64,000 nucleotides of DNA from IMG/VR virus record IMGVR_UViG_3300011242_000001, positions 50,439-114,438 of that record, one strand, 5' to 3'. The position numbers and the translations under genes are program-made. This document shows, piece after piece, positions 7,433 through 61,157 of the stretch (position 1 is its first letter; the number at the start of each line of letters is the position of its first letter). The stretch is from a virus. Its lineage: Duplodnaviria; Heunggongvirae; Uroviricota; Caudoviricetes. The notes under the pieces are model-generated. The model did not search any database, was not told the origin of the DNA, and saw only the letters and a program-made list of their open reading frames with translations.

Positions 7433-8045
7433 GGGTATGACTCGACCTTTATATCCGTGATTTGAGTAAAATTAAATTAAATTTAATAATAAAATTAAGA
7501 ATGATAATAAAAACTTAAAAATATTATTAAAGTAATTACTAATGATGATATACATATGGAAAAATGATAAGAAAACATATTTACAATAATTTGTACTTTG
7601 ATTCTCTATTTCTACAATGAGAAATCAATTTAAATCAGGGCTGGTCCAACAATACCAATATCACCGTGTAGAGCGGCTTATTACAAATTTACATCTCGTC
7701 TCTCGACACATTCTTTGCCGTAGAATGTATATCCCCTAAGAATTTGTTCCGGCTTCTTAGGCACCAAACTATATACTAGTTCAAATGGATCAATCAAATA
7801 TCCATCCTATCAGTTATTATAGAGTTATATTCTATGACGAATATATTGAAACTACGGTTGGTGTGGCGGATTCTAAACTATCTATGCAATTATATAATTT
7901 AGAATCTGTTCTTTACCTCTATAAAAGATTATATTATCTGATTAAAGTAAAGTCTTCGTTTCAAAGTGGTTGATTACCGTATAACCATGATTGGATCACG
8001 TCGCCTGTTGTTAGGTCAAACATTGCAGGCACTTTATTTTTTAAT
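7433..8045 (+). ncRNA. ORF-free conserved structured element A (candidate novel ncRNA or cis element); homologous to the inverted copy at 36598-37298
   Basis: About 610 nt with no conserved ORF. It shares multiple blocks with the reverse complement of 36598-37298: tatgactcNacctttatatccgtgatt, ccaacaat, cacattctttgccgtagaatgtatatcc, ctaaga..cggc.tcttag.cacc, ctatgacga..gttggtNtggcgg, gtggttgattaccgtaNaacca, ggatcac. Perfect hairpin ACATTCT-ttgccgt-AGAATGT. Covarying stem CTAAGA(A)/(T)TCTTAG versus CTAAGAG/CTCTTAG. Confidence 0.45.
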
Positions 8046-8170
8046 TGCAAAGATATTATCAATCTTCATTCTTTTCTCTATTATTTCGCGCCCAAGAAAA
8101 GTAAGGCAGGCTGCAACTTAGGTTGAGACTTATTTATATTTTATATCACATTTGATTATATTTGTAAATA

Positions 8171-14672: not shown

Positions 14673-14682
14673 TTCTTATATT

Positions 14683-15721: not shown

Positions 15722-16081
15722 ATGAAAACAGTAAAATTTTTAATTAATGGTAATCTATTTGGATTTGCCACAGATAGTAATGATGAATGGCAACATATAG
15801 TTTGTACGCAGATTGTGCAAATGTGTGAATTTGTATCTATTGGCGATGATATTATTAAATGCCGTTATCCTAATAAATATACAGTACATGCAGATATTAA
15901 TGAACAATATAATCAAGGTCATTTTACGCAATTACCGGTTAATGTATTAAAGCCTTCGAGATTTGATTCTTTAATATATGATAATTTAACTGGCTTCCCT
16001 GAAAGAAATAATCATTTGATGGGATATGATCACATTCGTAATATTTTTGATTTACTCATTAAAAAAGATATTCTTGTTTAA
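15722..16081 (+). CDS. hypothetical protein
   Basis: 119-aa ORF; AAGGT RBS. Confidence 0.45.
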   Translation: MKTVKFLINGNLFGFATDSNDEWQHIVCTQIVQMCEFVSIGDDIIKCRYPNKYTVHADINEQYNQGHFTQLPVNVLKPSRFDSLIYDNLTGFPERNNHLMGYDHIRNIFDLLIKKDILV

Positions 16082-16083
16082 TA

Positions 16084-16108
16084 AAAAAGGACCTTAAGGT
16101 CCTTTTTT
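16084..16108. terminator. bidirectional rho-independent terminator (GGACC-ttaa-GGTCC)
   Basis: Hairpin with flanking A/T runs between convergent genes. Confidence 0.6.
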
Positions 16109-16121
16109 AATTTTAAAACTA

Positions 16122-16556
16122 TTAACACAAAGCACGTAACACTTTGAGCTGTGATGCTAAGATACGTGGAGCACCATCACCTAACTGGATCGATTTAGCG
16201 GTTGCAATTGTTGATACAAACACTAAAGCACCATTGGATGCGGCATCATAAATACCGAGTGAAACCACTGTTCCCCAGTTACCAGTTGGGACTGGAAAGA
16301 TTAATTCAGCTGTATTGTTATATTCCTGGTTAGTACCGGTTGGTCCAGTCCAAGTACCAGCAACGCGAGGCAACTCTACACGTGAATATCCTGTACCTGA
16401 CGCCGAAACCTCTACGCCGCCAGTACCATTTAGGTTAGGTGTTGTAGTAAATAACGCAAGCCATAAGCTTGATGGCATTGAAGGCATCGCGACACCTTTT
16501 AAAAGGTAGTCGAGGAAATTCTGTGAGGTTGTATAAGAGAGCGTACTAGAAGGCAT
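16122..16556 (-). CDS. hypothetical Gly/Thr/Pro-rich protein in a locally GC-rich segment
   Basis: 144-aa ORF; the segment reads clearly GC-richer than its flanks by eye; beta-rich, fibre-like composition. Confidence 0.45.
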   Translation of the reverse strand: MPSSTLSYTTSQNFLDYLLKGVAMPSMPSSLWLALFTTTPNLNGTGGVEVSASGTGYSRVELPRVAGTWTGPTGTNQEYNNTAELIFPVPTGNWGTVVSLGIYDAASNGALVFVSTIATAKSIQLGDGAPRILASQLKVLRALC

Positions 16557-20747: not shown

Positions 20748-21941
20748 ATGAACGTTGTTGTAATCGGCGCCAACTATGGTGATGAAGGTAAAGGTCGTAC
20801 TGTTGATTTTCTTGCCAAAGACTTTTGTGGGCTTGAAAATCGACCTACTCTGAATGTAAGATTTTCTGGTTCAAATAATGCAGCACATACCGTATGGCAT
20901 AATAATACATCATTTGTATTTCATATGTTAGGGGCTGCTTCTTTTCGTGGGCATCCAACATATTTGAGTCAACATGTTGTTGTTGATTTTGTTGCACTAG
21001 AAACAGAAATTAATGAATTTGAAAAAATTACTGGATTTAAACCAGTCGTTTATGTCGATCCGCGGTGCCGTATTAATCTGCCATATGATGTAATGAAAAA
21101 CCGTATTAAAGAAATTCTTAAAGGTAATGATAAACACGGTTCAACTGGTAATGGTCTAAATGAAACTATTGACCGGCATCAACGTCTTCCAATTTTAGCA
21201 GGTACATTTGAATTTGCATTACCTATGTTAATTCTCACACAAAGTGATTTTCAGCAATTTGTTGAAACTGAGTTAAAGGATATTGAATTAGAATATCGAC
21301 ATAAAGACTTTATTGAATTTTTATGTGAGAAAAATTCAGTATCGTTTATTTTTGATAAAATTAGACATATCCTTAATAATCATCCTCAAATTGTATGCGA
21401 TACACCAAATCTTAAAATTTATAACTGTATCTTTGAAGGGAGTCAAGGGTTAGCTTTAGATGAATATAGCAAATTTTTTCCTCATGTAACTCGTACACGT
21501 ACTGGTACAACAAATGTAATAGATTTATGCCGTGAGCATGATATTGTAATTGACAATGTATATTATGTATCACGACCGTATTTCAGCCGTCATGGTGCAG
21601 ACAAATACTTTGAAGAATTTGATAGAATTAGTGACGTTTATAACATTGTAGATGAAACTAATATACCAAATGACTGGCAAGATAATTTAAAATTTGGTAT
21701 TTTAAATGTAACTGAAATGGATGAACGTATTAATGATGACTTTAAAATCATTAAAAATTTATTCCCAAATGTAAATAAGCAGCTGGTGTTTACTTGTATG
21801 GATCAATGTGGCGGTGGGTCTGGTATTTATATTCGTAACGGTCGACTATATCAAACAAGCGATCTAATAAATTCATTAAATTTATATTATAGATTTAGTG
21901 ATATTAAACCAATCTTTTTTGATAATAAGGAAAATATATAA
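20748..21941 (+). CDS. adenylosuccinate synthetase (PurA) family homolog; candidate PurZ-like enzyme
   Basis: N-terminal NVVVIGANYGDEGKGRTVDFL matches the PurA P-loop GDEGKGK; GSNNAAHTV matches GGHNAGHT; FEGSQGLALDE matches FEGAQGTLLD; the C-terminal region is divergent; 397 aa. Confidence 0.65.
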   Translation: MNVVVIGANYGDEGKGRTVDFLAKDFCGLENRPTLNVRFSGSNNAAHTVWHNNTSFVFHMLGAASFRGHPTYLSQHVVVDFVALETEINEFEKITGFKPVVYVDPRCRINLPYDVMKNRIKEILKGNDKHGSTGNGLNETIDRHQRLPILAGTFEFALPMLILTQSDFQQFVETELKDIELEYRHKDFIEFLCEKNSVSFIFDKIRHILNNHPQIVCDTPNLKIYNCIFEGSQGLALDEYSKFFPHVTRTRTGTTNVIDLCREHDIVIDNVYYVSRPYFSRHGADKYFEEFDRISDVYNIVDETNIPNDWQDNLKFGILNVTEMDERINDDFKIIKNLFPNVNKQLVFTCMDQCGGGSGIYIRNGRLYQTSDLINSLNLYYRFSDIKPIFFDNKENI

Positions 21942-22714
21942 TGTCATATGATATTATCAGTAAATGGCCACAAATGCTTGTGACCGGTCAAACTATTACT
22001 AATCGTGATACTATTATTGAAATTCTTTTATTAACAGATTCATTTTTAACAGATACATCCCAATATAGTGGTGGTAATAATCACGCATTTAATTTAATGT
22101 ATCGTACAAAAGCCGGCCTAGAATATGTAGGTAAATTTGAAAGATATATTAAAGAAAATAATATTACATTAAATGATGATTTTAAATATTTTTCATATGA
22201 GTTTGAAAAACTTTTAAAAGCTGAATTAGGTGTTATTGATAATGAATATGTATCTAATAGATGGGCGTCATCGTGTTTCATTTATGGTGCATATGGTTGG
22301 TGCTCACCTGAAGGGAAAATATTATATACAGATAATGTTGGTAAATGGCCTTCAACAGAAGAAATTGTTGAAGAATGGGAATTTATTGCAAAAAAATGGC
22401 CCTTCCTTAATATTAATGTTACCATTTTTGATGGTGAAAGTTGCGAAGATAATAAAAACGCATTATTTAATTTAGCTATTAAAGACGGTACTGTTGAAAT
22501 TAAAGCACCTGATACAAGTGTACATTGTCATTTAACAGATATGGATTCTAATTTTAATCAGATTAATCGATCATATTCTGAACGTAATGAACAAGGTATT
22601 CCAGATGATATGATTGATGAAATAGCATCAATTGTTAAAAATAAAGTTCATGAGGTATTAAAGAAAATTCCAGAAAAAGAGTTAGTCAAATATATGGAAT
22701 TAAATCCATTTTAA
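21941..22714 (+). CDS. hypothetical protein, translationally coupled to the PurA-like gene
   Basis: TAATG overlap; 257 aa. Confidence 0.5.
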   Translation: MSYDIISKWPQMLVTGQTITNRDTIIEILLLTDSFLTDTSQYSGGNNHAFNLMYRTKAGLEYVGKFERYIKENNITLNDDFKYFSYEFEKLLKAELGVIDNEYVSNRWASSCFIYGAYGWCSPEGKILYTDNVGKWPSTEEIVEEWEFIAKKWPFLNINVTIFDGESCEDNKNALFNLAIKDGTVEIKAPDTSVHCHLTDMDSNFNQINRSYSERNEQGIPDDMIDEIASIVKNKVHEVLKKIPEKELVKYMELNPF

Positions 22715-22719
22715 ATAAA

Positions 22720-22740
22720 GGACCTTAGGGTCCTTTTTAT
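22720..22740 (+). terminator. rho-independent terminator
   Basis: GGACC-ttag-GGTCC plus TTTTT. Confidence 0.6.
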
Positions 22741-22834
22741 ATTTGTGCACACCAAGTTTTTTACAAATATAAAAAGAAATATAATACAATACTTCATATT
22801 GTATACTTTTATATTTGTAGGAGATAATTAACGC

Positions 22835-24769
22835 ATGTTTTATACATCAGTTGTAAAAATGGGAAATAATATTATTCACCGTTATATCAAAGATGGAAAG
22901 CGTTATCAAGAAATTATTAAGAATTTTGATTATGATTTATATGTGCGAAGCGAATATTCGCGAGACGCTTTAGATGTACATAAAAACCATTTAAAACGTT
23001 ATAATTTTGACAATATTTATGATATGAGTCAATTTATTAATGAAAATGGTAATGACAATGTTTATGGTAATACTGATCCAGTAACACAATTTATAGCAAA
23101 AACATATCCTGATGAAATTAAATTAACTAATGATTATGTAGTTCTAAACTTCGATATTGAGACCGAACACGGCGAAGGCTTTATCAAATATAAAGACCCT
23201 CATATTATCCAGGTTCAAGAAGATAAAAATGAACCAATTAAAATGGCATTGGGTGAATTTAAAAAGATCGATCTAAATGTACATGAATATCATGTATATG
23301 ATGAAGAAAAAAAAGATTGGCTTCTTTATGAAAATTCATGTTATGCGCCGCAACAACTAGGATTCCCAGACCCAAATTTAGCTTTATACCAGGTAATGTC
23401 GGTATCATTAATTTCATCTTTAGAAAATATAATTTATGTATATGGTACTAAAGAATTTAAAGGTGCACGCACAATTGAAGGATCTGATTATACTATTCGT
23501 CATATTTATTGCGCAAATGAAAAAGAACTTTTAGTTAAATTTATTCAGAAATGGCGTGAAATTAAACCTGATATTTTAACTGGCTGGAATGTTGAAGGAT
23601 TCGACGTACCATATATTATTAATCGTATTGTGCGTGTACTTGGTAAAAAGTTTGCTAATATGCTTAGCCCATTTGCTAATGAATCACAAAACTGTATTCG
23701 CGAACGCCAAAAAGAAGATGCCGTTTATTATAGTATTTCAGGTATTACCATTTACGATTACCTGTCTGTATATAAAAAGTTCTCGCGTGAAAAACGTGAA
23801 AGCTATAAATTAGACTGGATTGGTAAAGTAGAAGTAGACCATCAAAAGATTTCATATGACGAATATGATAATTCACTAATGAAATTATGGGAATACGATT
23901 ATGATAAATTCATTCTATATAATGCTATCGATACATTAATTGTTAATAAGCTAGATAAGAAATTAAAGTTTATTAATCTTGCAATTACGATTGCTCATAT
24001 TACTAAATCAGATTTAAGTGATGCTTTAGGTACCATTAAAATTTGGGATAATATGATTTATAACTTACTACGTAAGCGCGATATTCAAATTCCACCAAAT
24101 ATCAAACAAGAAAAATCTAAAGAATTCTTGGGTGCATTTGTAAAAGAGCCATTACTTGGTCGACATGGTTGGACTTTAACATTCGATTTAACATCGCTAT
24201 ATCCAAGTATTATTCGTATGTTAGGTATGTCACCGGAAACACTTATTGATCGTGAAATTGGTAATGATTTCACTGCAAATAGTGCCGTGCGAAAAGTTAT
24301 TAAATCCAATATGGATATTGTTGCCAATATTATTATGGACGGTGAATTTGGCACAGATAATGAATTATCAGAAGATTTATATATTCTTAAACGATTTGAA
24401 TCAGCCGATGTTAATAAAATTAAATCATTAGATAAAAATACAATGATTTATGTTTTACAAGAATTACGTCGGGCAGATGAATATTATAATTCTGGTCATA
24501 ATCATATTCATGGTGTTAAAACAGTATTAGAAAATGTTGAAAACTTTATTAATATGGTGACCGATCTTTCTTGGGCTAAAGAAAAAAATGTCACTGTAGC
24601 AGGTAATGGTTCAACATATGATAAATCCACTGAAGGCGTAATTCCTGAAGCGATGACTCACTTATTCAATTACCGTAAACTACTTAAGAATAAGATGAAG
24701 GAAGAAAAGAAAAAATTACAGCTAAAAATTGAAGAGCTACATAAGTTAGAATCACAGCTAACATCTTAA
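22835..24769 (+). CDS. 43: family-B DNA polymerase, N-terminal fragment (gp43 part A: 3'-5' exonuclease domain and palm motif A)
   Basis: MFYTSVVKMGNNIIHRYI matches T4 MKEFYISIETVGNNIVERYI; FDIETE exo I; LTGWNVEGFDVPYIINRI matches LTGWNVESFAIPYVYNRI; GAFVKEPLLG...FDLTSLYPSIIR matches GAFVKEPIP...FDLTSLYPSIIR (motif A); ends with a coiled-coil-like tail KKKLQLKIEELHKLESQL; GGAG RBS. Confidence 0.85.
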   Translation: MFYTSVVKMGNNIIHRYIKDGKRYQEIIKNFDYDLYVRSEYSRDALDVHKNHLKRYNFDNIYDMSQFINENGNDNVYGNTDPVTQFIAKTYPDEIKLTNDYVVLNFDIETEHGEGFIKYKDPHIIQVQEDKNEPIKMALGEFKKIDLNVHEYHVYDEEKKDWLLYENSCYAPQQLGFPDPNLALYQVMSVSLISSLENIIYVYGTKEFKGARTIEGSDYTIRHIYCANEKELLVKFIQKWREIKPDILTGWNVEGFDVPYIINRIVRVLGKKFANMLSPFANESQNCIRERQKEDAVYYSISGITIYDYLSVYKKFSREKRESYKLDWIGKVEVDHQKISYDEYDNSLMKLWEYDYDKFILYNAIDTLIVNKLDKKLKFINLAITIAHITKSDLSDALGTIKIWDNMIYNLLRKRDIQIPPNIKQEKSKEFLGAFVKEPLLGRHGWTLTFDLTSLYPSIIRMLGMSPETLIDREIGNDFTANSAVRKVIKSNMDIVANIIMDGEFGTDNELSEDLYILKRFESADVNKIKSLDKNTMIYVLQELRRADEYYNSGHNHIHGVKTVLENVENFINMVTDLSWAKEKNVTVAGNGSTYDKSTEGVIPEAMTHLFNYRKLLKNKMKEEKKKLQLKIEELHKLESQLTS

Positions 24770-24774
24770 AAAAA

Positions 24775-24796
24775 GGACCGCAAGGTCCTTTTTTAT
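24775..24796 (+). terminator. rho-independent terminator
   Basis: GGACC-gcaa-GGTCC plus TTTTTT. Confidence 0.6.
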
Positions 24797-24855
24797 TGTA
24801 CTTACAATTATATACGCGATACAATTTATATAAATTAATGATAGAGATCATACAA

Positions 24856-26585: not shown

Positions 26586-27029
26586 ATGAACAATATTGTT
26601 AAAGTGAAATTTATTTTTGAAAATTGTGAATCACTTACTTATGAAGCCGTTGATATTGCTAAAATTGCATTTTTTGGCTTAAGTAAACAATTTTCCAAAT
26701 ATTCAGGTAGTCTTCATAAAAATAACTACGTTTCCGCATTTGAATTTATTTTAAAAAATAAATCAATTCCATGTAATGAAACATTACATTCTCCATTAGA
26801 CAATCCATCCTTTCGATTTGAAGAACACGACGTTGCACAAATTTGTTTTATCTATGAAGATGAATCTCATGAAGCATATTTGGTAGAATGGCCAAACGGT
26901 GATGCATGCACCCATTCTAAACAGCAATATAATATGTCATTAAAAGGCAATATTCATTTTACATCATATATTAAGAAAAAGCATTTTAAAAAGTTTGCAA
27001 CAATAGAAACGGTAGATTATTTTTCTTAA
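26586..27029 (+). CDS. hypothetical protein
   Basis: 147-aa ORF. Confidence 0.4.
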   Translation: MNNIVKVKFIFENCESLTYEAVDIAKIAFFGLSKQFSKYSGSLHKNNYVSAFEFILKNKSIPCNETLHSPLDNPSFRFEEHDVAQICFIYEDESHEAYLVEWPNGDACTHSKQQYNMSLKGNIHFTSYIKKKHFKKFATIETVDYFS

Positions 27030-27099
27030 TTGTATATACACATATAATTTTTTATATTATAATATCTCCATACAATATAAATCTTGATGGAGATATGCA

Positions 27100-29750: not shown

Positions 29751-29879
29751 ATTAGAATTAGATAATATTAAATCTAAACTAACTCAAATAATACCGCATT
29801 AATAAAATTTAAAAATGTATATACATTTTTAAATTATTGTATTATAATTTCTTTATTATATGTACAAAGAGATTATACT

Positions 29880-31121: not shown

Positions 31122-32903
31122 ATGCCAAATCTTATGAACATTTTAATTATTGCGGGAATTATCGTCGCTGGTATTATTATCATGGGTGTCATTATCGCCC
31201 GACTATATAAGCGCTCAACAAAAGAAGTTTCTTTCGTTCGTACCGGTTGGGGCGGAGAAAAAGTAATTCTAAATGGTGGTGCAGTCGTTCTACCAGTATT
31301 GCATGAAATTATCAATGTAAATATGAATACACTTCGTCTTGAAGTATCACGTATTAATGAACAATCATTAATTACTAAAGATCGTATGCGTGTTGATGTT
31401 CAAGCTGAATTCTACGTTCGTGTTAAACCAACTGCTGAATCTATTGCTGCAGCTGCACAAACATTAGGTCGTAAAACAATGTCTCCACAAGAATTGAAAA
31501 ATCTTGTAGAAGGTAAATTTGTTGATGCTCTTCGCTCTGTAGCAGCTGAAATGGATATGGAAGAATTGCATGAAAAACGTACCGACTTTGTTCAAAAAGT
31601 ACAGCAAGCTGTTACTGAAGACTTAACTAAAAACGGTCTTGAACTTGAAACTGTATCTCTTACTGGTCTTGACCAAACTGATGTACGTCATTTCAATCCT
31701 CAAAACGCATTTGATGCTGAAGGTCTTACTAAACTTACTGAAACAATTGAAGATCGTCGTAAAAAACGTAATGAAATTGAACAGAATACTGATCTTGCGG
31801 TTAAAACCAAAAATCTTGAAACTGAACAAGCTCGTCTGCAAATTATTCGTGAAGAAGAATATGCTAAGATGGAACAACAACGCGAACTATCTAATCGTCG
31901 TGCTGCTCAACAAGCTGAAATTGCAATGCAAGAAGCTGAAAAGCAACGTGAATCTGAAGAAGCTCGTATTGCTGCACAGCGTGAAGTTGAATTAAAACAA
32001 ATTGCTGCTCAACGTGATATTGATAATGAAAATATCTTAAAAGAGCAACAAATTCAAAAAGCGAAAGTTGAACAAAAGAAAACTATTGAAATTGCTGAAC
32101 AAGATAAAGCCATTGCGATCGCTCAAAAATCACAAGCTGAATCTGAAGCAAAAGCAAAAGCTGACTTGGCACGTGCCGAAGCAGTAAAAGCTGAAGAAGA
32201 AGTAATCACAGTTCGCCAAATCCAACAAGCAGAACGTCAAAAATCTGTAGAATTGGTACAAGCCAAAGAAAAAGCTGAAAAAGAAGCGATTGCAATTACT
32301 GTTGCGGCTGAAGCAGATAAAAAAGCTGCTACTGACCGTGCTGAAGCTACTCAAATTGCATCATCTGCACAAGCTGAATCGATTCGTATTGCTGCTAAAG
32401 CAAATGCTGATAAAGAAGCGATTGCAATCACTGTAGTTGCAACTGCAGAAAAAAATGCAGCTCAAGCTCGTGCTGATGCTCGATTACTTGAATCTAAAGC
32501 TCAATCTGAATCTGAAATTCTTCTTGCTGATGCGGCAGAACGTAAATATGCAGTTGATGCAGCTGGTAAACGCGAATTGAACGAAGCGGATAACTTACTA
32601 TCTGCAGAACAAATCGCAATGAAAATTAAGCTTGAACTTATCAAAGCTCTTCCAGAAATTATCGCTCAAAGCGTTAAGCCAATGGAAAACATTGAAGGTA
32701 TCAAAATTCTACAAGTTAATGGTCTAACTGGTGGCCAATCTGGTGGTGATACTGTTGAAGGTGAATCTACTAACTTGGCAGATCAAATGACTAACTCAGC
32801 ACTTCGATACCGTGCGCAAGCTCCATTAGTTGATTCACTAATGACTGAACTTGGTATCAAAGGTGGTGACATCAACGGTTTTACTAAAGGTCTAAATGAC
32901 TAA
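31122..32903 (+). CDS. flotillin-like SPFH/band-7 protein (YqiK/FloT family)
   Basis: N-terminal TM helix; SPFH core (EVSFVRTGWGGEKVILNGGAVVLPVLHEI...RVDVQAEFYVRV); about 300 aa of Ala/Glu/Lys-rich coiled coil (AEAKAKAD, EKAEKEAIAIT repeats); 593 aa. Confidence 0.7.
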   Translation: MPNLMNILIIAGIIVAGIIIMGVIIARLYKRSTKEVSFVRTGWGGEKVILNGGAVVLPVLHEIINVNMNTLRLEVSRINEQSLITKDRMRVDVQAEFYVRVKPTAESIAAAAQTLGRKTMSPQELKNLVEGKFVDALRSVAAEMDMEELHEKRTDFVQKVQQAVTEDLTKNGLELETVSLTGLDQTDVRHFNPQNAFDAEGLTKLTETIEDRRKKRNEIEQNTDLAVKTKNLETEQARLQIIREEEYAKMEQQRELSNRRAAQQAEIAMQEAEKQRESEEARIAAQREVELKQIAAQRDIDNENILKEQQIQKAKVEQKKTIEIAEQDKAIAIAQKSQAESEAKAKADLARAEAVKAEEEVITVRQIQQAERQKSVELVQAKEKAEKEAIAITVAAEADKKAATDRAEATQIASSAQAESIRIAAKANADKEAIAITVVATAEKNAAQARADARLLESKAQSESEILLADAAERKYAVDAAGKRELNEADNLLSAEQIAMKIKLELIKALPEIIAQSVKPMENIEGIKILQVNGLTGGQSGGDTVEGESTNLADQMTNSALRYRAQAPLVDSLMTELGIKGGDINGFTKGLND

Positions 32904-32914
32904 TAAAGCAAAAT

Positions 32915-32946
32915 AAAAAAAAGGACCGCAAGGTCCTTTTTTTATG
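32915..32946. terminator. bidirectional rho-independent terminator (GGACC-gcaa-GGTCC)
   Basis: Hairpin flanked by an A8 run and a T9 run between convergent genes. Confidence 0.6.
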
Positions 32947-33415
32947 CTTTTTTAATAGATTTAACTATATTATATTCGGATTTAGTCGCTAATAATACAG
33001 TTTGCGGTGTTAAATGACCATTTGAATTTTTATAACTTAAAGATATTGTTCTACTATATCCGTATGTATCAGATGATTTTCCTTCTTGATGAGCAATCAA
33101 TGCGAAAGTATGAGCTCCTTTCTTATTTTCATTTGAGTCAACTAATTCATATCCTTTTTTAAGTAATTCAGCCGGCTTAGCCGATTTTAATACAGAAGAC
33201 TCTTCAATTGAATCTAAGAAATCACTATAATTATCCCATTTTGCATCAGATTTATTTTGTACTTTACTTTGTACTATATAATTAAAACCTTCTACTACGG
33301 CTTTAACTATTGTACCGTCATCTAATTCAATAGTTAATAGATCACCTTTATTGTAATTTGTAAATTTTACACTTTTATCATTCGATGATTCATTTAAAAA
33401 TTGTTCAAAATTCAT
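32942..33415 (-). CDS. putative capsid-targeted internal protein (CTS family), 157 aa
   Basis: N-terminus MNFEQFLNESS matches the window-wide MxFxxFLNE motif, which is analogous to the T4 CTS MKTYQEFIAE. Confidence 0.5.
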   Translation of the reverse strand: MNFEQFLNESSNDKSVKFTNYNKGDLLTIELDDGTIVKAVVEGFNYIVQSKVQNKSDAKWDNYSDFLDSIEESSVLKSAKPAELLKKGYELVDSNENKKGAHTFALIAHQEGKSSDTYGYSRTISLSYKNSNGHLTPQTVLLATKSEYNIVKSIKKA

Positions 33416-33486
33416 TTTTTATTGCTCAATAATATTTATATATATATATTTATATAATAAAATAACTTTTAATTAAGATTTAAAAA

Positions 33487-33763: not shown

Positions 33764-33856
33764 TTTTTATCTCTTTATTTACGTTATTATATTATTTTAT
33801 TTAATAGAGTTTTTTTTATTAAATAATAAAAAACCCCATACCAAAGGTATTAACAA

Positions 33857-34588
33857 ATGAATTTTGAACAATTTTTAAATGAAGCATCACCCGCGCGTGA
33901 ACGTACTGCTCGACTCACTTTTTCTAAAAAAGTAGCTGACGGGCTTGATAAAGCAGCGGGCGACCCAGAAAAAGAACGTCGCTTCGGTAAAGCTATTTTT
34001 AAAGAAATGTATAAAAAATATGGCGTCGGCTATGATCATTTATTAGATTCACTTGAAGGATCAACAGCTGAAAAATTAGAACAAGCAAATGCATGGGCTG
34101 CTTTAGAAGGTGTTCGCGATTTTTATGCTGAAAAAGGTGATACAAAAACAGCAGAATCTTATCAACGTACAATTGATAAAATGGATCGTGAAACTACTAC
34201 TAAAACCGGATCGGCTGCTTTAATTAAAAATATTATTGCGGCAATTAAACCAGGCGGTAAGTTTAACGAATTTGCCGAATATGATACTAACAAATTTGAT
34301 ATTGTTTTCCCAAAACATAGTCCAAAAACCACTGAAGTTAAAGAATCTGTTAGTAAAGCAACAGCGAACTTATATTTTCAGCATAAAACTACTACATATA
34401 AAAAAGTAAGTACAATATCATATATGGCGAATATTATTATTGCTTATAATGGACCTCGTGCTGGTGAAATTATGCATATCATTTATAATGATAACGGCGT
34501 CACAAAAATTAAAACATTCGGTACGGAAAATTTATTAGATGACGCTTTAAAAGGTACATTTAATAATAAAACGATTACAAAAGTTTAA
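33857..34588 (+). CDS. putative capsid-targeted internal protein (CTS family), 243 aa
   Basis: N-terminus MNFEQFLNEASP. Confidence 0.5.
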   Translation: MNFEQFLNEASPARERTARLTFSKKVADGLDKAAGDPEKERRFGKAIFKEMYKKYGVGYDHLLDSLEGSTAEKLEQANAWAALEGVRDFYAEKGDTKTAESYQRTIDKMDRETTTKTGSAALIKNIIAAIKPGGKFNEFAEYDTNKFDIVFPKHSPKTTEVKESVSKATANLYFQHKTTTYKKVSTISYMANIIIAYNGPRAGEIMHIIYNDNGVTKIKTFGTENLLDDALKGTFNNKTITKV

Positions 34589-34622: not shown

Positions 34623-34718
34623 TTTACTGGTGAAAATCAGTTATTTTATAAAAATGTATATACAAATTTAATTTTATATATTATAATGATATCATATTCA
34701 ATCATAATGGTGATTAAA

Positions 34719-35994: not shown

Positions 35995-36411
35995 TTATGC
36001 GTCTTTTTCTTCGGTTGGTTTTAAATCTTCAATCAATTCACCAAGGTAACCATATAATTCATCTTTACCAAATTTCTTCTCTAATTCAGTAATGAACGCT
36101 TCAATATCTTTACCACCACCAGTAATAGGAGCGCCTTCATCGTCATTCACATCAACATCGCCATCTTGTGAAATACCAGCTTCTACTGTTACTGTACCCG
36201 TTTTGCCATCTTCAGTTGTAACTTCAAATTTAACTTTAGCTAAGTGGACTAATTCATCACCACCAAACTCATCATATGCTTCATCAGCATCGCCGTCAAA
36301 TCCACCAACTAAGCCATAACGAATAAATACATAGCTTTTAGCATATTTAAAAGCATTATCAAAAGCAGCGGTTGCACCTTTTGCTTCATTTAAAAAATCT
36401 GCAAATTTCAT
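35995..36411 (-). CDS. putative capsid-targeted internal protein (CTS family), Gly/Asp-rich, 138 aa
   Basis: N-terminus MKFADFLNEAKG. Confidence 0.5.
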   Translation of the reverse strand: MKFADFLNEAKGATAAFDNAFKYAKSYVFIRYGLVGGFDGDADEAYDEFGGDELVHLAKVKFEVTTEDGKTGTVTVEAGISQDGDVDVNDDEGAPITGGGKDIEAFITELEKKFGKDELYGYLGELIEDLKPTEEKDA

Positions 36412-36597
36412 TTTTATTAATCCTAATAATTTTAATAATATTATTTAATAAAAATAATGTACATTTATTTACAGCTATGTTATAAATACAACATGATAAA
36501 AGTCTTATGTAGTAATGCATACAGCCTGTCTTTATTATATCCGGACGCGAAAAATAGGATATAAGATGTGAATTGATAACATTCATGCAATCGAAAT

Positions 36598-37298
36598 TAA
36601 TAAAGTCTGGGCAACGACGACCCCTGTCGACCTAGGACGGTGATCCCACGAAAGTGGTTTACGGTAATCAACCACCTGAAGATGAAGAATCTAATATTAT
36701 TCCATATGAATATAAAATATTAGATTCAGTTATTATAAAGAATGATTGCACAGTTTTTATAATAACCGCCATACCAACAGTAATCTTCATATGATCGTCA
36801 TAGATCATAACTTATATAAGAATGATAAGATAAGCATTTAATTGGTTTATCTGAACTGTCTATATTATTTGGTGTCTAAGAGGCCGTAATAAGCTCTTAG
36901 AGGATATACATTCTACGGCAAAGAATGTGCTGAAAAGCAAGGCAAACTTAAAAGCAAGTCCATCTACAGGATTATGCGAGCATTGTTGGGCTCAACGTGG
37001 TTCTAATTAAATGAATGTGTAGATAATAGTTCATTTAAAGTAATTATCTTTTTATAAATTAAAATTTATAAATTGAATAAAGATAATATGCAATCTCATC
37101 ACTATTTGTCTTCGACAAAATGACACGACTTTCAGTCGGTCAAACTCCATATGAATTTATAGTTTATTAATTGATAATCATTTCTTTTAATATATTTTAA
37201 ATTAATTATATATAATCATTCTTTTTCTATTTTTAAATTCTAATTTTATAAAAAATATATTTTACTAGAATCACGGATATAAAGGGGTGAGTCATATC
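36598..37298 (-). ncRNA. ORF-free conserved structured element B (inverted homolog of element A at 7433-8045)
   Basis: The reverse complement aligns block by block with 7433-8045, including the conserved hairpin ACATTCT-ttgccgt-AGAATGT and a covarying CTAAGAG/CTCTTAG stem; no ORF over 60 aa; the 5' end (element orientation) abuts the divergent gene 37391. Confidence 0.45.
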
Positions 37299-37328
37299 TA
37301 AAAGAAAGTAAAAAAGAATATAAGAATA

Positions 37329-37356
37329 AATGTATATACAAATATAATAAAATATA
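37329..37356 (+). promoter_or_regulatory. promoter-like palindromic motif TGTATATACAAATATAAT upstream of 37391
   Basis: The same core recurs at about 4161, 20683, 27029, 29811, 34651, 38571, 48103 and 61097. Confidence 0.3.
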
Positions 37357-37390
37357 GTATTATTGCCTTTATTTTTTAAAGGATTTAGTT

Positions 37391-37954
37391 ATGCGTTATC
37401 TTGCAGCTTTTTTATCAATGCCTAATGCTGGTTCGTGGAATGGACGTTGGAGTGGTGAATCTAGACCATATGTATCATTAATTCGCGTATCAGAAGTTAA
37501 TAAAGCAAAAATGGAACGTCAATTATCAATCATTGGATCATATTACTATGATTTTGGTGATGGATGGGGTGCAAGCGTAAATATTAAAGAAGTAACCGAA
37601 AGTGAATATAAGCACTATAAAAAGATTACCGCTGGTTTTTCTGGTTATGACTGGATGGTTTCATCAATTATCAAGTATAAGCGTATCGTGAATTCAACGG
37701 AAAAGACCTTTTTAGATTTTAAAGAACTTGCAGAAAAACATTTAAACCATGTTGAATTAACTGATCATAACTGTTATGAAGAATTACGGTTTGATAATGG
37801 TCGTAATAAATTTAGCTTGCGCTTATATAATCAATATAATGATCATGCAAATGAACATATGTACTTATATGTAGATGGTCGTGAATATTGCAAAGTAACA
37901 AGTGCATCATTAAGCTTAATGGAAAGTCTTAAACATATGGCAGATGCGGCTTAA
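37391..37954 (+). CDS. hypothetical protein
   Basis: 187-aa ORF. Confidence 0.45.
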   Translation: MRYLAAFLSMPNAGSWNGRWSGESRPYVSLIRVSEVNKAKMERQLSIIGSYYYDFGDGWGASVNIKEVTESEYKHYKKITAGFSGYDWMVSSIIKYKRIVNSTEKTFLDFKELAEKHLNHVELTDHNCYEELRFDNGRNKFSLRLYNQYNDHANEHMYLYVDGREYCKVTSASLSLMESLKHMADAA

Positions 37955-38290: not shown

Positions 38291-38569
38291 ATGTGTAACC
38301 ATCATAACAAATATGTACATTTAAATGTAGATCTTAGTAAGTTTAAAATTACTTATTGCGATAATCAATCAATTATTTTTAATCATATTGATGACACAGA
38401 TATGGAAGATCGTATTCGAGACTCATATGTTGTAATATATTCAGATAGTGCTTGGATGGGCGGCAACATAGGTGTTAATTTATATTTGGATGGATTTACA
38501 CAAGGATCTGACTTGCAATTAGATCAAGCTTTATTGGAACTTGATAAACATTTTATTAATAAAAAATAA
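38291..38569 (+). CDS. hypothetical protein
   Basis: 92-aa ORF. Confidence 0.4.
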   Translation: MCNHHNKYVHLNVDLSKFKITYCDNQSIIFNHIDDTDMEDRIRDSYVVIYSDSAWMGGNIGVNLYLDGFTQGSDLQLDQALLELDKHFINKK

Positions 38570-38570
38570 T

Positions 38571-38606
38571 ATGTATATACAAATACATTTATATGTTTTA
38601 TAATGC
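38571..38606 (+). promoter_or_regulatory. promoter-like ATGTATATACAAATACATTT...TATAAT upstream of the dexA-like gene
   Basis: Core palindrome plus TATAAT 30 nt before the RBS. Confidence 0.3.
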
Positions 38607-45343: not shown

Positions 45344-45401
45344 ACATTTATAGTAAAAGCAAAAAGTCTCATACTAAATAACAATAAAAAGGTATTCTCA
45401 A

Positions 45402-45800
45402 ATGAGTTTTGAACAATTTTTAACTGAAGCAGCTGAACCGCCATATGAAACAGTTAATACGGATCAATTAAATGTTTTACGTCAAGAGATTGATCGCAGC
45501 GCATTACGTGTAGAATTAAATAAAAAGTATATTGATAAATCTGATCTTAATATTAGTTTATTTAATAATGACTATTATATTGGTGGCATGCGATTAGATA
45601 ATGATGATAATGTTATTGTTAAAGTTGCAATTATAGTTGAAGTAACGGAAGAGGACGGTTATTTATATTATAAGATAGCAAATATTGTATATGATATCAA
45701 TCAAAATAAAATTATTAAGATAATTGAAAATGATAAGATTCGTGATGAAAATTGGAAAACAGTTCAAGGCGAAATTTTAAAAACCGCCATTAAATTATAA
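45402..45800 (+). CDS. putative capsid-targeted internal protein (CTS family), 132 aa
   Basis: N-terminus MSFEQFLTEAAE. Confidence 0.5.
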   Translation: MSFEQFLTEAAEPPYETVNTDQLNVLRQEIDRSALRVELNKKYIDKSDLNISLFNNDYYIGGMRLDNDDNVIVKVAIIVEVTEEDGYLYYKIANIVYDINQNKIIKIIENDKIRDENWKTVQGEILKTAIKL

Positions 45801-46762: not shown

Positions 46763-47410
46763 ATGAAATTTGCAGACTTTCTATTAGAAGCGCCATTACC
46801 AGATACTTGGGATAAAGACAAGTTTAAAGGCAGGCTTGACTTTAAAGGTATGGTTGAATACGCATTAGAACGCTCAAAATCTTTAGGTGAAGGCTCATCA
46901 CGTGTTGCATTTAATATTGAATATAAAGGTCGTGAAACAGCTTTAAAAATTGCAAAGAATCCAAAAGGCGTTGCTCAAAACGTACAAGAAATATTGTACT
47001 TAAATGATGAAAAAATTAAAAAACTTAATATCACAATCCCTTTAATTGATTATGATACAACCAACCATAAAGCACGTTGGTTACATACAGAAAAAGCTGA
47101 TAAAATTCATGACGCATATTTTGAAGAAGAATTAGGTTTACCTTTGCGGGACGCAATTCTTTATATTAACCGTGATATTAATCCACCAAAGTTGTCAATA
47201 GGTTCTAAATTACAAGCCGAACGAGGCGAAAAGCTTAAAAAAGATTCCCCTATCGTTAAAGCAATCTATAAATTATTAACAGATTTTCCAGAAATTGGTT
47301 ATGGTGATTTAGCTCGCATTCAAAATTGGGGTATGTATAAAGGGCACCCGGTTATTTTAGATATCGGATATGATTCAACCTCGGCAGTATTATATAAGTT
47401 GGCAAAATAA
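46763..47410 (+). CDS. CTS-bearing protein-kinase-like (RIO/KdoK/APH-type fold) protein
   Basis: N-terminus MKFADFLLEA; LGEGSSRVAF (Gly-rich loop), TALKIAK (beta-3 Lys), YGDLARIQNWGMYKGHPVILDIGYD (HGDLxxxN catalytic loop followed by IDFG-like metal-binding Asp); 215 aa. Confidence 0.55.
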   Translation: MKFADFLLEAPLPDTWDKDKFKGRLDFKGMVEYALERSKSLGEGSSRVAFNIEYKGRETALKIAKNPKGVAQNVQEILYLNDEKIKKLNITIPLIDYDTTNHKARWLHTEKADKIHDAYFEEELGLPLRDAILYINRDINPPKLSIGSKLQAERGEKLKKDSPIVKAIYKLLTDFPEIGYGDLARIQNWGMYKGHPVILDIGYDSTSAVLYKLAK

Positions 47411-47847
47411 TGAAATTTGTAGATTTTTTAAATGAAGTTAAGCTTTATAGAGGTGGGGTAATTCCACCTGGTAAAACACTTATTTGGTATACAGAAGATT
47501 CAGATTTTGCAACAACTTATAGTCATTTAAAAGGTGACTTTGTATTTCATGAATTAGATGCCGATTTATCAAAATACAATATATGTGATATTGGCAGAAT
47601 TGAAAATGTAACCAGTATGACATATTTATGCGGCATTTTATGGAAGTATGCTAATATTAAGGATAAAGAAATTTTTGATAAAGCTAAAAAATTGATGCAA
47701 GAAATACGAGGGTCTAGTAAAGATCATTTACATCAATTGATATTCAAAGAGCCTAGATTTATTGACTATATGAAATTATTAAAAATAGATGGTATTAAAG
47801 CAACGGAAAACAAATCTGTAACATATGGTTTTATTAATAAGCTATAA
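47410..47847 (+). CDS. putative capsid-targeted internal protein (CTS family), 145 aa
   Basis: N-terminus MKFVDFLNEVK; ATGA-coupled to the upstream gene. Confidence 0.5.
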   Translation: MKFVDFLNEVKLYRGGVIPPGKTLIWYTEDSDFATTYSHLKGDFVFHELDADLSKYNICDIGRIENVTSMTYLCGILWKYANIKDKEIFDKAKKLMQEIRGSSKDHLHQLIFKEPRFIDYMKLLKIDGIKATENKSVTYGFINKL

Positions 47848-47852
47848 AAAAA

Positions 47853-47870
47853 GGACCGTGAGGTCCTTTA
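47853..47870 (+). terminator. hairpin GGACC-gtga-GGTCC (weak T tract)
   Basis: Same hairpin family as the other terminators, but followed by only TTTA. Confidence 0.4.
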
Positions 47871-49189: not shown

Positions 49190-49935
49190 AGTATTTCTAA
49201 AAACTCTTCCCAACGGTCGAGTAAAACAGCTACGCATGGTCCACCAATCCAAAATTCACATTTTCCGTGAATTTTGGATATCTCATTTGACTTAATAGCG
49301 GTAAAGTTTAATTGCTTTGGGTCATATGTATATGACAAATATTTTTCAACATTATTAACATCATGTTTAAATAGTTCTGCCACAAATTCTTCTTGACTAC
49401 TACTATTATCATTAATATTTTCAATAATATGTTTAATATCGCGTACTATTGATTCATAACTACTTGAATCAATATTGCATTCTAAAAATAGGGTGTTATA
49501 TTGTTCTAAATCACCAAAGTCATCACCAATAGATGTTTCAGTCATCCAGATATCAGGCTTATTAACGCATCCAATAATAGTATCGTCATAAGGTAATATT
49601 ACATACATATTATCGCCAAATATTTTTGCTTGACGTTTATTGCTAATATTAGTACAAATAATAGAAGCCGATCTTAATGGTAAATTTGATTTAGTTTTTT
49701 TAATAAAATGATCGATCATTACAGTGTAATAATTACCATTACTATCTTTATTGCGGGATTCACGATTGCCTTTTTGTCCTTCAAATATATAGTATTGTCC
49801 AGTATTATTAGCTCCACGAATAATATAATTATCTTTATCAATATGGGAGCAATGTTTTTTTACAAGCTCAATAGCTTCGGCTTGTGTTATTGTTGTTCTG
49901 TATGAAGATTCATTTAAAAAAGTTAAAAAATCCAT
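49186..49935 (-). CDS. putative capsid-targeted internal protein (CTS family), 249 aa
   Basis: N-terminus MDFLTFLNESSY. Confidence 0.5.
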   Translation of the reverse strand: MDFLTFLNESSYRTTITQAEAIELVKKHCSHIDKDNYIIRGANNTGQYYIFEGQKGNRESRNKDSNGNYYTVMIDHFIKKTKSNLPLRSASIICTNISNKRQAKIFGDNMYVILPYDDTIIGCVNKPDIWMTETSIGDDFGDLEQYNTLFLECNIDSSSYESIVRDIKHIIENINDNSSSQEEFVAELFKHDVNNVEKYLSYTYDPKQLNFTAIKSNEISKIHGKCEFWIGGPCVAVLLDRWEEFLEIL

Positions 49936-50009
49936 TGTATTTTCTCAAAGGTATATACGTTTATTTATTCATAAGGTATAATTGCACCATTATGTAAGGG
50001 TCAATTAAT

Positions 50010-56677: not shown

Positions 56678-58498
56678 ATGAGTGAATTTAAAATTCTGAG
56701 TGAGCGTGATCATATCAGAACTAGAAGTGCGATGTATATCGGCTCAATTACATCGGAAGAAATTTCTGGTATTTTAAATTTTAAATATCAGACTAAAAAA
56801 TATATTCCTGGCCTAGTTAAAATTATTGAAGAAATTTATCAAAACTCGGTTGATGAAGCTATTCGTACTAATTTTGAATTTGGCAATGAAATTACAGTTA
56901 CTATTAAAGATGACTTTATTAACGGTTGGTTCGTTGAAGTCAATGATAATGGTCGGGGTATTCCAACTAAACAAATAGATGGCAAATATCAAGCTGAATT
57001 ATCTTGGACTCGAGCTCGTGCAGGTTCTAATTTTAGTGATGATAATCGTACTACAATCGGTATGAACGGTATCGGCAGCTATTTAACAACATGTTTTTCA
57101 AAACAATTTGTTGGCCAATCATGCGATGGAAAAATTAACGTAATTGTTAAATGTCTAAATGGTTGTGAAACAATTGAAACTACAGTTGAAAAGTCTAAAT
57201 CACGCGGTACAAACGTAAAATTTTATCCGGACTTAAAACTCTTTAATACAAAAACTATTGATAAAGAATTAATTGATCTTATTGAAGATCGACTAATGAA
57301 CTTAGCAATTTGTTATCCTAAAGTAACTTTTAAATTTAATGATAAAAAATTATCTATTAAAAATTCTACTCAATTAGCTAAGTCTTTCCATGAAAGTGCA
57401 TTGGCATTTGATGACGAAAATTTTAATATGGTTGTTGCTCCAGCTGGAGATGATGAAGAATTCCGTCATTTATCCTTCTTTAATGGTATTGCTATTAAAA
57501 ACGGTGGTAATCATATTGATTATTTTATCGGTGGTTTATGTAATGAATTAATTCCACTTATTAAACGTAAATGGAAAATTGAAGTATTACCTAACCAAAT
57601 TAAACAACATTTATTATTGGCATTTTGGGTACGTAATTTCCCTAATCCTAAATTTGATTCGCAGTCTAAAGAGCGTATCACAAATACGATTGGTGAAATT
57701 AAAACATTCATGGATTTAGACTTCAATAAAATTGCTAAGAAAATTTTAGCAACTGACGAAATCATTATGCCGGCAATTGATTCAATTCTTCGTAAAAAAG
57801 AAGCTATTGAAAAGCGTGCAGCCACTAATGCATTGAAGAAAGTTCAAAAGAAAAAGATTGCAAATCATATCGCTGCAAATGATAAAGATCCGGAAAAGAA
57901 AACTCTTTATATCGCAGAAGGTTTATCTGCTTCAGGCATGGGCCTTTCTGTACGTGATCCAAAATATCATGGGTTCTATTCTTTACGGGGTAAAGTATTA
58001 AACACACATGATATGTCGGCTTATGACATTCTTAAAAATAAAGAATTAGCTGAATTGCTTGCTATTATTGGATTGGATTTAAGTGATCCAGAAATATTGG
58101 AATCTGAATTGAACTACGGTAAAATTGCAGGCTTACAAGATATGGACCCGGATGGTAATGCGATCTTCTGTTTATTATTAATGTTCTTCTCTCGTTGGCC
58201 ACAACTATTTAAAGATAAACGTATTTTACGTGTTCAAACTCCTTTATTTGTAGCAAAGAAAAAAGGCAAACCAGCAAAGTATTATTATACGTTTGAAGAA
58301 TATGAAAATACGTCCGATAACTTAACTGGATATGAAATTACATATATTAAAGGTCTTGGATCTTTAGAAAAAGAAGACTATAAAGAAACTGTAATTGTTA
58401 ATCCACGCTTTATTGCAGTTACACTAGATGACATTGAAAAATTAAATATGACATTTGGTAATTCCGCTGATGCTCGTAAAGAGTGGATGATGGGATAA
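56678..58498 (+). CDS. 39: DNA topoisomerase II large subunit (GyrB-like; T4 gp39 and gp60 equivalents fused)
   Basis: ILSERDHIRTRSAMYIGS, NSVDEA, NDNGRGIP (GHKL ATPase); Toprim region (YIAEGLSASG, DMDPDGN) in the same ORF; 606 aa. Confidence 0.85.
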   Translation: MSEFKILSERDHIRTRSAMYIGSITSEEISGILNFKYQTKKYIPGLVKIIEEIYQNSVDEAIRTNFEFGNEITVTIKDDFINGWFVEVNDNGRGIPTKQIDGKYQAELSWTRARAGSNFSDDNRTTIGMNGIGSYLTTCFSKQFVGQSCDGKINVIVKCLNGCETIETTVEKSKSRGTNVKFYPDLKLFNTKTIDKELIDLIEDRLMNLAICYPKVTFKFNDKKLSIKNSTQLAKSFHESALAFDDENFNMVVAPAGDDEEFRHLSFFNGIAIKNGGNHIDYFIGGLCNELIPLIKRKWKIEVLPNQIKQHLLLAFWVRNFPNPKFDSQSKERITNTIGEIKTFMDLDFNKIAKKILATDEIIMPAIDSILRKKEAIEKRAATNALKKVQKKKIANHIAANDKDPEKKTLYIAEGLSASGMGLSVRDPKYHGFYSLRGKVLNTHDMSAYDILKNKELAELLAIIGLDLSDPEILESELNYGKIAGLQDMDPDGNAIFCLLLMFFSRWPQLFKDKRILRVQTPLFVAKKKGKPAKYYYTFEEYENTSDNLTGYEITYIKGLGSLEKEDYKETVIVNPRFIAVTLDDIEKLNMTFGNSADARKEWMMG

Positions 58499-58503
58499 AA
58501 AAA

Positions 58504-58525
58504 GGACCGTGAGGTCCTTTTTTAT
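58504..58525. terminator. bidirectional rho-independent terminator (GGACC-gtga-GGTCC)
   Basis: Hairpin with A-run/T-run between convergent genes. Confidence 0.6.
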
Positions 58526-58538
58526 TTTACAAGTTTTA

Positions 58539-58775
58539 TTACTTACTCATTTCTTTTTCGTATTTTTCAATATCTTCCATGGAAAGCCATTCAGGTTTTT
58601 TATCCAATGCGTTCCATAATTCTTTCATTTTTTCAATTTGTTCTTTAACACTGCCAGCCCATAAACTTGACTCAGAACGACCACCAGCTTTTAAAAAATA
58701 TTCACAGTCGCTTCGTAAACGACTCAATAACATATAATCGCCTTTGCTTTCATTTAAAAAGTCTTGAAAATTCAT
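58539..58775 (-). CDS. putative capsid-targeted internal protein (CTS family), 78 aa
   Basis: N-terminus MNFQDFLNESKG. Confidence 0.45.
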   Translation of the reverse strand: MNFQDFLNESKGDYMLLSRLRSDCEYFLKAGGRSESSLWAGSVKEQIEKMKELWNALDKKPEWLSMEDIEKYEKEMSK

Positions 58776-58883
58776 TGATATATCTCACTATTTTATTATG
58801 TATTTATTTAGTCAAATAAAATAAAATAAATAAGATCATATTTGCGTTAAAATAGAAATTCATTTTAAAGGACCTTAATTTAA

Positions 58884-61135: not shown

Positions 61136-61157
61136 TTGTTTATACGGAATATGATTC

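Follow-up and report, generated by a model that had tools for sequence, protein, structure and literature searches.

To my knowledge, only a few large structured RNAs have come to light in bacteria and phages: ribosomal RNA (rRNA), RNase P, transfer-messenger RNA (tmRNA), introns, OLE, GOLLD, ROOL and raiA, each of them informative. GOLLD was reportedly described by Weinberg et al. in 2009 and ROOL, it is said, by Weinberg et al. in 2017. In each of these large phage RNAs a conserved part is combined with a linker that is variable or disordered, and each has pseudoknots and kissing loops; cryo-electron microscopy has shown that both form RNA-only nanocages (PMC12286853). The locus considered here lies in a 64,000-nucleotide stretch of phage DNA, called the window throughout (positions 50,439 to 114,438 of IMG/VR record IMGVR_UViG_3300011242_000001), which holds two diverged copies, A and B, of an element that recurs as three further sequence types, C, D and E, in other AT-rich phage contigs. 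I propose that A and B are paralogous genes for a large non-coding RNA with multiple pseudoknots, of an undescribed family carried by AT-rich T4-like jumbo phages. That the element is a structured RNA gene of a new family I take to be very likely; the proposal as a whole is the best explanation I can offer, and a probable one.

Of the known RNAs, GOLLD and ROOL come nearest to it in kind. Like GOLLD, the element is phage-encoded, very large and ornate, with pseudoknots and no conserved protein partner in cis, and here as in GOLLD conservation is high in the 3' part and poor in the 5' or linker part. ROOL, which phages and prophages encode and which is about 0.6 kb long, is like it in its many hairpins bearing conserved loops, its loop-loop contacts and its one unconserved linker. 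That it resides in phage DNA is plain from the T4-like genes in the window and from the IMG/VR viral contigs that carry D and E. But neither the GOLLD nor the ROOL model of Rfam matches it. Its architecture and conserved loops differ from those of GOLLD, and it is found in T4-like jumbo phages, as a pair of diverged and inverted paralogues within one genome, with no transfer RNA (tRNA) neighbours in the window; its helices and motifs are unrelated to those of ROOL, which is usually found near tRNA islands. A search of Rfam 15 (4227 families including GOLLD, ROOL, OLE, HEARO, group I and II introns, RNase P, tmRNA and 6S) gave no family membership: nothing in the 64-kb window matches at gathering level, and at E-values up to 10 or 1 the five types gave only scattered matches of 15-35 bits, to unrelated small RNAs and terminators.

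Two diverged copies in one genome

Element B lies in a gap of 979 nucleotides (nt), positions 36412-37390, which is without a credible open reading frame (ORF) and is flanked by ORFs at 35995-36411 (-) and 37391-37954 (+). The complete conserved RNA gene, from a -10-like hexamer to the end of a conserved 3' tail, occupies 36522..37296 on the minus strand (775 nt). Element A, in the opposite orientation and 29 kb away, occupies 7436..8113 on the plus strand (678 nt). The two are 65.8% identical over 670 aligned positions, with a longest identical run of 28 nt, CACATTCTTTGCCGTAGAATGTATATCC. The original prediction had listed a series of sequence blocks shared by the two gaps, and it was correct in this: the reverse complement of 36412-37390 is collinear with 7413-8207, and every block is present in the same order. 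It placed element B at 36598-37298; the conserved element starts at 37296 and on the 3' side reaches about 36522, some 75 nt further.

The relation between the copies greatly exceeds what chance would give, and it can be seen by several routes. A repeat search of the window finds the A/B core as a pair of inverted 69-nt arms, 87% identical; blastn with A as query finds B-type contigs at E = 7e-31; and nhmmer finds exactly two copies of the element in the window. A covariance model trained without B, on A and type C only, recovers B at E = 2e-18 and has no other match below E = 0.4 in the rest of the 64 kb.

Types A to E are 50-73% identical to one another. Type C, on a 69-kb ENA contig (L067-L069), has 73% identity to A; the one neighbouring protein that the two loci share, a CCA-adding enzyme, has 36%. 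Type D (L027, 8129-8862, minus strand) and type E (L004, 205-712, minus strand) lie on IMG/VR contigs of 82 and 58 kb with almost no local orthologues in common with the window. Across types, then, the element is better conserved than the proteins that surround it. A similar comparison within type B, in which the copy of L022 (96% identical in nucleotides) seemed far better conserved than its neighbour gene (59% in amino acids), was discarded: the L022 phage is a mosaic close relative, most of whose genes are 93-100% identical. Since the contigs of D and E come from one metagenome (3300011947), a single distant phage probably carries both and so has two diverged copies likewise. The original prediction had seen in A and B a functional family and not a recent duplication, and this is borne out by structured RNAs that are under selection and kept as two diverged copies.

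The remaining occurrences are closer at hand. L005, in IMG/VR, is the same phage, its A copy being 99% identical. Close relatives that carry B (L022-L024) were found through a neighbouring protein of 187 amino acids, and short B-type contigs (L070-L077), along with type C, through a protein-database search with spurious ORFs inside the element; a second such search yielded no further copies. There was no match to the element by blastn among 50,697 GenBank phages. Exact and gapped pattern scans of IMG/VR gave L005, L027 and L004 as the only real matches, the remainder being chance hits in GC-rich coding sequence; a pattern scan of JGI metagenomes gave two matches, both due to chance, and scans of GTDB genomes gave no real match. 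The family is known so far from a few AT-rich T4-like giant phages only.

Pairing maintained by compensatory change

The case for a folded RNA rests on base pairs that persist while their sequences change (helix names are those of the anatomy given below). Given the five sequences, RNAalifold predicts 71 pairs, 36 of which show compensatory changes. The pairs were then counted in three sets of helices. For H2, H3, H4 and H5, in a MAFFT alignment of the core, 96.9% of the cells are paired, against 25-42% when the partners are slid, and 18 of 23 pairs have changed on both sides; none of 500 shuffles does as well. For H8, both parts of T, and H10, in a MAFFT alignment of nine 3' variants, the values are 94.2% against 31-49%, with both sides changed in 12 of 19 pairs, and no shuffle in 500 reaches the observed percentage paired, the number of cells changed or the covariation score. 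The third set, Px, H6, H7 and H8, was aligned by a covariance model of that region built from A and C only, with which B, D and E were then found and aligned; here 96.2% of cells are paired against 37-57%, 16 of 28 pairs have changed on both sides and 0 of 500 shuffles compare, counts that lean toward the structure because the alignment was fitted to the model. Taken together, the three sets have 94-97% of cells paired against 25-57% with partners slid, and 46 of 70 pairs changed on both sides. The model from A and C matches D (8e-18) and E (6e-5) as well as B, all on the expected strand.

A table made by hand adds further pairing in P1a, Hv, H3b, Px, H6, H7, H9, PK2 and P0. The sequence of Px differs in nearly every type and its pairing is always kept: UUGAAAC/GUUUCAA, UGAAGAU/AUCUUCA, UUGAAGG/CCUUCAA and CUGAUGAA/UUCAUCAG. 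The long-range pairing PK2 comes in versions that compensate one another, UGCAAUUA/UAAUUGCA in A and C, GUGCAAUC/GAUUGCAU in B and D, and AGCUUACA/UGUAAGCU in E. Some 15 helices are maintained by compensatory changes across the five types.

Then there is the matter of strand. Cells with G-U pairs and cells with A-C mismatches stand at 18:6 in one tally and 13:1 in the hand-made table, 31:7 in sum. Conserved G-U pairs are present in H8 and, in H6, at its base. The RNA is therefore on the plus strand at A and the minus strand at B. Compensatory pairs and G-U strand asymmetry, the two marks by which a structured non-coding RNA is generally recognised, are thus both present. What the five types have in common is an elaborately folded RNA under selection, with a defined strand, independent of its neighbours and kept in two diverged copies.

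It might have been that A and B resemble each other only in short promoter and terminator cassettes, a possibility that the original prediction raised against itself. Their similarity is a collinear stretch of about 670 nt with those 15 or so helices. Unconventional or degenerate coding is another way to account for it, whether as a pseudogene, small ORFs or recoded stops. There is in fact an ORF of 46 amino acids in B and one of 62 in A that have a frame and stop codon in common and have been called in public assemblies. But D and E have stop codons in that frame, as read directly from their sequences, and no ORF is conserved across the element, the internal ones being short. The substitutions compensate one another in stems and do not follow codon positions, database matches lead back to the same elements only, and the remainder of the window is densely coding in the standard code. 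I find the coding explanation scarcely credible.

Anatomy of the RNA

Across types the RNA gene is 0.5-0.8 kb long, with a conserved core of about 350-400 nt made up of P1a/P1b, Hv, H2, H3, H3b, H4, H5, Px, H6, H7, H8, H9, T and H10. I describe it here from 5' to 3' in the coordinates of B, so that all positions are on the minus strand of the window and descend.

The putative promoter is the hexamer TATGAC (37291..37296), picked out by comparing the 5' flanks by eye. Its counterparts read TATGAC, TATAAG, GTGAAT or TATAAT, and in every type a T-rich tract precedes the hexamer and CCGTGAT follows it at a distance of 13-15 nt. The conserved 5' block CCUUUAUAUCC follows, with the invariant CCGUGAU that serves as 5' strand of P1a/P1b (37264..37285). 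Next is V1 (37041..37263), an AT-rich variable region closed by P1a, which ranges from about 80 nt in E, where it is much shorter, to about 270 nt in B; it includes a B-only insertion of 40 nt relative to A, with a GAAA-tetraloop hairpin, CGACUGAAAGUCG (37108-37148). Then, together at 36996..37040, come the 5' strand of P0, the hairpin Hv (loop UAUUAUCUACA) and the 3' strand of P1a, which closes V1. H2 (36977..36994) presents the invariant loop CCAACAAU, 5' partner of the pseudoknot PK1, and is followed by H3, a conserved linker and H3b (36929..36971).

H4 (7 base pairs and a 7-nt loop, UUGCCGU) and H5 (8 base pairs and a loop ending in GGC) occupy 36875..36928 at a spacing that is fixed in all five types. 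The H4 loop, UUGCCAU in type C, is like that of an anticodon, having U33 and, at position 37, a purine. The next domain, of about 90 nt (36790..36874), is optional: it is found in A to D and is missing from E. Both this domain and V1 vary freely. Px (UGAAGAU/AUCUUCA in B) spans 36677..36789 and encloses the 3' strand of PK1, GUUGG (36774-36778), then H6 (36728-36767), whose apical loop GUGCAAUC is the 5' strand of PK2, and H7 (36687-36727). PK1 would join CCAAC in the H2 loop to GUUGG 200 nt downstream.

Beyond Px come H8 (GUGGU/ACCGU, with its conserved G-U pairs), H9 (CCAC/GUGG) and an invariant GAUCAC (36639..36675 in all), the last being a second complement of the 5' strand, called P1b. 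After them comes the T hairpin, a two-part covarying stem at 36607..36635, followed by a U-rich run (36593-36606). The 3' tail (36522..36592) consists of the 3' strand of PK2, GAUUGCAU (36585-36592), H10 (36569-36585, loop GUUAUCA), CCUAUUUUUCGCG and the 3' strand of P0 (36528-36534).

Several other features were considered and set aside. Pairing of the H3-H4 linker with the H5 loop is uncompensated in C and D, and pairing of the 3' tail with the 5' block is inconsistent among types. NCCA strings in the tail brought to mind a tRNA-like 3' end, for which no acceptor stem was found, and the hammerhead-core sequence CUGAUGA appears in E only.

The T hairpin, the tail and the neighbouring genes

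The T hairpin is the GC-rich island that the original prediction had found unusual for so AT-rich a genome, and the island is real (36607-36635). It is an internal covarying hairpin, not the 3' end of the RNA. One can see why it might be taken for a terminator with a promoter behind it, as I considered: the 70 nt or so after the U-run look like a promoter (TTATCA, 17 nt, TATTAT), and in A they match a sigma-70 pattern. That idea was rejected, as PK2, H10 and P0 covary across T. In PK2, the H6 apical loop pairs with the 8-9 nt after the T hairpin and U-run; the would-be -35 forms the loop of H10, itself a covarying hairpin; and P0 brings the base of V1 together with the last part of the tail, a pairing for which D and E show compensatory changes. 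The tail therefore belongs to the folded RNA. The T hairpin may nonetheless end part of the transcripts.

The same features invite the broader thought that the element is a cis-acting leader, an attenuator or a terminator-plus-promoter cassette for adjacent genes, the conserved tail acting as promoter. The T hairpin and U-run are terminator-like, the tail of A matches the sigma-70 pattern, and there are same-strand genes after B, C and D. It is too much to expect, however, that a cassette should need 650 nt of conserved structure, that its -35 should sit in the loop of a covarying hairpin, and that the 8-9 nt before H10 should pair in compensatory fashion with the loop of H6. The downstream genes, moreover, are different and unrelated in all five types, and a terminator and a convergent gene come after A. 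The flanking genes of the five loci are not homologous to one another, no conserved class of same-strand downstream gene of the sort that goes with a riboswitch or leader is found, and Pfam gives weak matches or none for the neighbour genes. The original prediction described a divergent gene at the 5' end of each copy. This is so in A, B, D and E; in type C the upstream gene and the element share a strand, and so the divergent arrangement is not a property of the family. Because the flanking genes are unrelated and the upstream gene of C is co-directional, I conclude that the element is not cis-regulatory: a cis role is very improbable, and the suggestion of a pair of regulatory RNAs, in the sense of control over a neighbour, finds no conserved gene to be controlled.

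Another explanation is that the element is a ribozyme, or else what is left of a mobile RNA element: a free-standing group I- or group II-like intron without an ORF or some other self-processing RNA that spreads between phages. Its layout is ribozyme-like (a conserved core, variable peripheral insertions, pseudoknots, loop-loop contacts), its genomic context is different in each phage, and its 3' modules have been swapped between phages. But the intron and ribozyme models of Rfam do not match at E up to 10, and neither domain V of group II nor the P7/G-site signature of group I could be recognised by eye. No gene is interrupted, as a self-splicing intron would require: complete ORFs flank the element, they are unrelated from copy to copy, and at A and B several are on the opposite strand. 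No homing endonuclease or reverse transcriptase is encoded nearby. This explanation I judge improbable.

Replication, inversion and module exchange

Two inverted copies in a phage genome naturally suggest landmarks of replication or recombination, which the original prediction offered as a possibility. The RNA might mark or prime an origin by a structured R-loop transcript, as do ColE1 RNA II and the oriF/oriG transcripts of T4, or the inverted pair might be a site of recombination or inversion. The ColE1 and T4 transcripts are structured, untranslated and several hundred nt in length, and T4 has two such origins. They are defined by a promoter (middle-mode in a T4-type origin) and a downstream region that unwinds or forms a hybrid, not by a conserved pseudoknotted core. 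The RNA proposed here is like them in being a structured, untranslated transcript of several hundred nt and unlike them in having such a core; origin features were not found.

As to evidence from the window itself, the minimum of cumulative GC skew does fall in the 6-8 kb bin that holds A. That turn is near a switch in gene orientation at about 9 kb, and there is none at B. Neither copy adjoins an initiator gene or iterons, and an elaborate covarying fold with conserved loops exceeds the needs of an R-loop primer. Recombination has in its favour the two inverted copies 29 kb apart and signs of activity at B, where the 3' 120 nt are mosaic among near-identical phages and where many assemblies break. 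Against it, the longest run identical in A and B is 28 nt at most, and every related contig that crosses A or B (L005, L022-L024, L073) has the parental junctions only, so that inversion of the 29-kb interval has left no sign. The support for origin or recombination is circumstantial, no positive evidence marks the copies as landmarks of either kind, and I hold both ideas to be quite improbable.

The mosaicism of B deserves a closer look. B-type copies of near-identical phages are 98-99% identical to B of the window up to GGGAUCAC, and from there 58-66% identical over about 120 nt. The abrupt switch is seen in L022 (309-450), L074, L076, L077 and L071, and H9, T and H10 are still paired. Judging from these boundaries, modules have evidently been exchanged at conserved strings. 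The assemblies that end inside B are L023, L024 and L070-L077. T4-type phages are said to exchange modules at PeSL ('promoter-early stem-loop') cassettes, of about 50-100 base pairs with a promoter and a hairpin, reportedly described by Arbiol et al. in 2010. In B-type copies the mosaic boundary is sharp and falls at GAUCAC, behaviour reminiscent of these cassettes. Unlike them, the element is a covarying RNA of 0.7 kb, and the cassettes that the window does have (TGTATATACA...TATAAT and AAAGGACCnnnnGGTCCTTT) are other sequences.

What the RNA may do

Returning to the proposal of a large non-coding RNA, its working might be pictured as follows. A and B would each have a -10-type promoter a short way before CCGUGAU, and transcription from it would continue past the internal T hairpin to give a discrete RNA. 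That RNA would act in trans as a self-contained folded particle, with no control of a neighbouring gene. The particle could be a scaffold, a decoy that binds protein or RNA, or possibly a multimer formed by loop-loop contacts such as UUGCCGU with CGGC. By analogy with GOLLD and ROOL, for which this manner of action has been proposed, I advance the trans-acting particle tentatively, as a reading that I lean to without quite believing it.

A bolder idea makes A and B the first members of a new class of ornate phage RNAs that carry out chemistry or build structures unaided: a new ribozyme, or an RNA-only multimer of both paralogues, held together by conserved loops, with the complements P1a and P1b as a domain swap or switch. 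The loops UUGCCGU and CGGC are complementary and conserved, and they could pair within one molecule or between molecules. I think the bolder idea unlikely.

A number of observations weigh against the proposal of a new non-coding RNA or some part of it. There are five sequence types only, which limits statistical power, and the alignment is partly hand-made or fitted to a model. PK1, invariant on both strands, lies outside the reach of covariation. The contact between the loops of H4 and H5 is without compensation in type C. The invariant CCGUGAU has two conserved complements, P1a and P1b, that compete for it, a duality that could reflect alternative conformers, a coaxial junction or pairing between molecules. 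The T hairpin, which together with its U-run has the look of an intrinsic terminator, lies inside the proposed RNA. Both ends of the transcript, 5' and 3', are putative, as is the promoter, all three being placed by conserved sequence. GOLLD and ROOL are typically found by tRNA islands, and there is no tRNA gene in the 64-kb window. Finally, nothing points directly to a function.

A link to tRNA biology is weakly suggested by the surroundings. Type D has three tRNAs about 7 kb away. Type C adjoins genes for Thg1 and a CCA-adding enzyme, which belong to an RNA-repair-like cluster upstream of the element (L067, 6689-9234: R2K ATP-grasp, Thg1-like, CCA-adding/PolyA_pol). Type A is near a sub-threshold match to PTH2, and the H4 loop is anticodon-like. 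Also upstream of the C copy is a short tandem repeat, GGAGCCGATAT (L067, about 9455-9495), and downstream of it are SIR2 and Zeta-toxin/AAA_33 genes.

If the proposal is right, giant T4-like phages have kept two diverged copies of a new family of RNA, 0.5-0.8 kb in length, with some 15 covarying helices and at least one long-range pseudoknot that covaries. Since its conservation exceeds that of the phage proteins, an RNA-based role in infection is implied. With the sequences and the secondary-structure model in hand, one can begin experiments and search metagenomes by covariance model.

The phage and its other repeats

The G+C content of the window is 30%. It encodes T4-type replication proteins (a split family-B DNA polymerase, topoisomerase II subunits, ATP-dependent ligase and a Dda/Pif1-like helicase), besides TelA, flotillin and adenylosuccinate synthetase. 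Among phages, even the best relatives of the polymerase are less than 40% identical, and the protein that adjoins element B (P0001) has an identical copy on a 381-kb contig. From the replication genes, the distance of the polymerase and the size of that contig, it follows that the window comes from an undescribed AT-rich T4-like jumbo phage.

The polymerase is divided between two ORFs on the same strand, 22835-24769 (+) and 11090-12352 (+), in swapped order: the exonuclease domain and the start of the polymerase domain sit 10.5 kb downstream of the ORF with the remaining polymerase domain. Around element A are unusual auxiliary genes: 7041-7412 (-), with a weak match, under the Pfam threshold, to PTH2-like peptidyl-tRNA hydrolase, 8481-8981 (-), with a macro domain, and 2803-4104 (-), TelA; the adenylosuccinate synthetase gene is farther off (20748-21941, plus strand). 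The flotillin/SPFH gene (31122-32903) holds a tandem duplication at 32262-32512, of 119 nt, 71% identical and at a spacing of 132.

Three other kinds of repeat are scattered through the window. A cassette of about 30 nt, ATGAAtTTTgaaCAaTTTTTAAATGAAg (encoding MNFEQFLNE...), opens at least seven otherwise unrelated ORFs, at 33856-33884, 45401-45429 and 47409-47437 on the plus strand and at 33384-33421, 36380-36419, 49904-49943 and 58741-58781 on the minus strand. One of these ORFs is the gene of 138 amino acids just downstream of element B. The cassette might act as a linker in recombination or as a signal for translation. A palindromic box, TGTATATACA, with TATAAT about 17 nt later, recurs before many genes (for example at 27024-27061, 29809-29846, 34648-34685, 37324-37361, 38565-38602 and 61107-61144) and is found also in L027 and L004; it is probably an early promoter type of this phage lineage. 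Near-identical hairpin terminators, AAAAAGGACCnnnnGGTCCTTTTT, stand between genes at 2282-2325, 14643-14686, 16081-16124, 22712-22755, 24767-24810, 32915-32958, 47823-47869 and 58496-58539.

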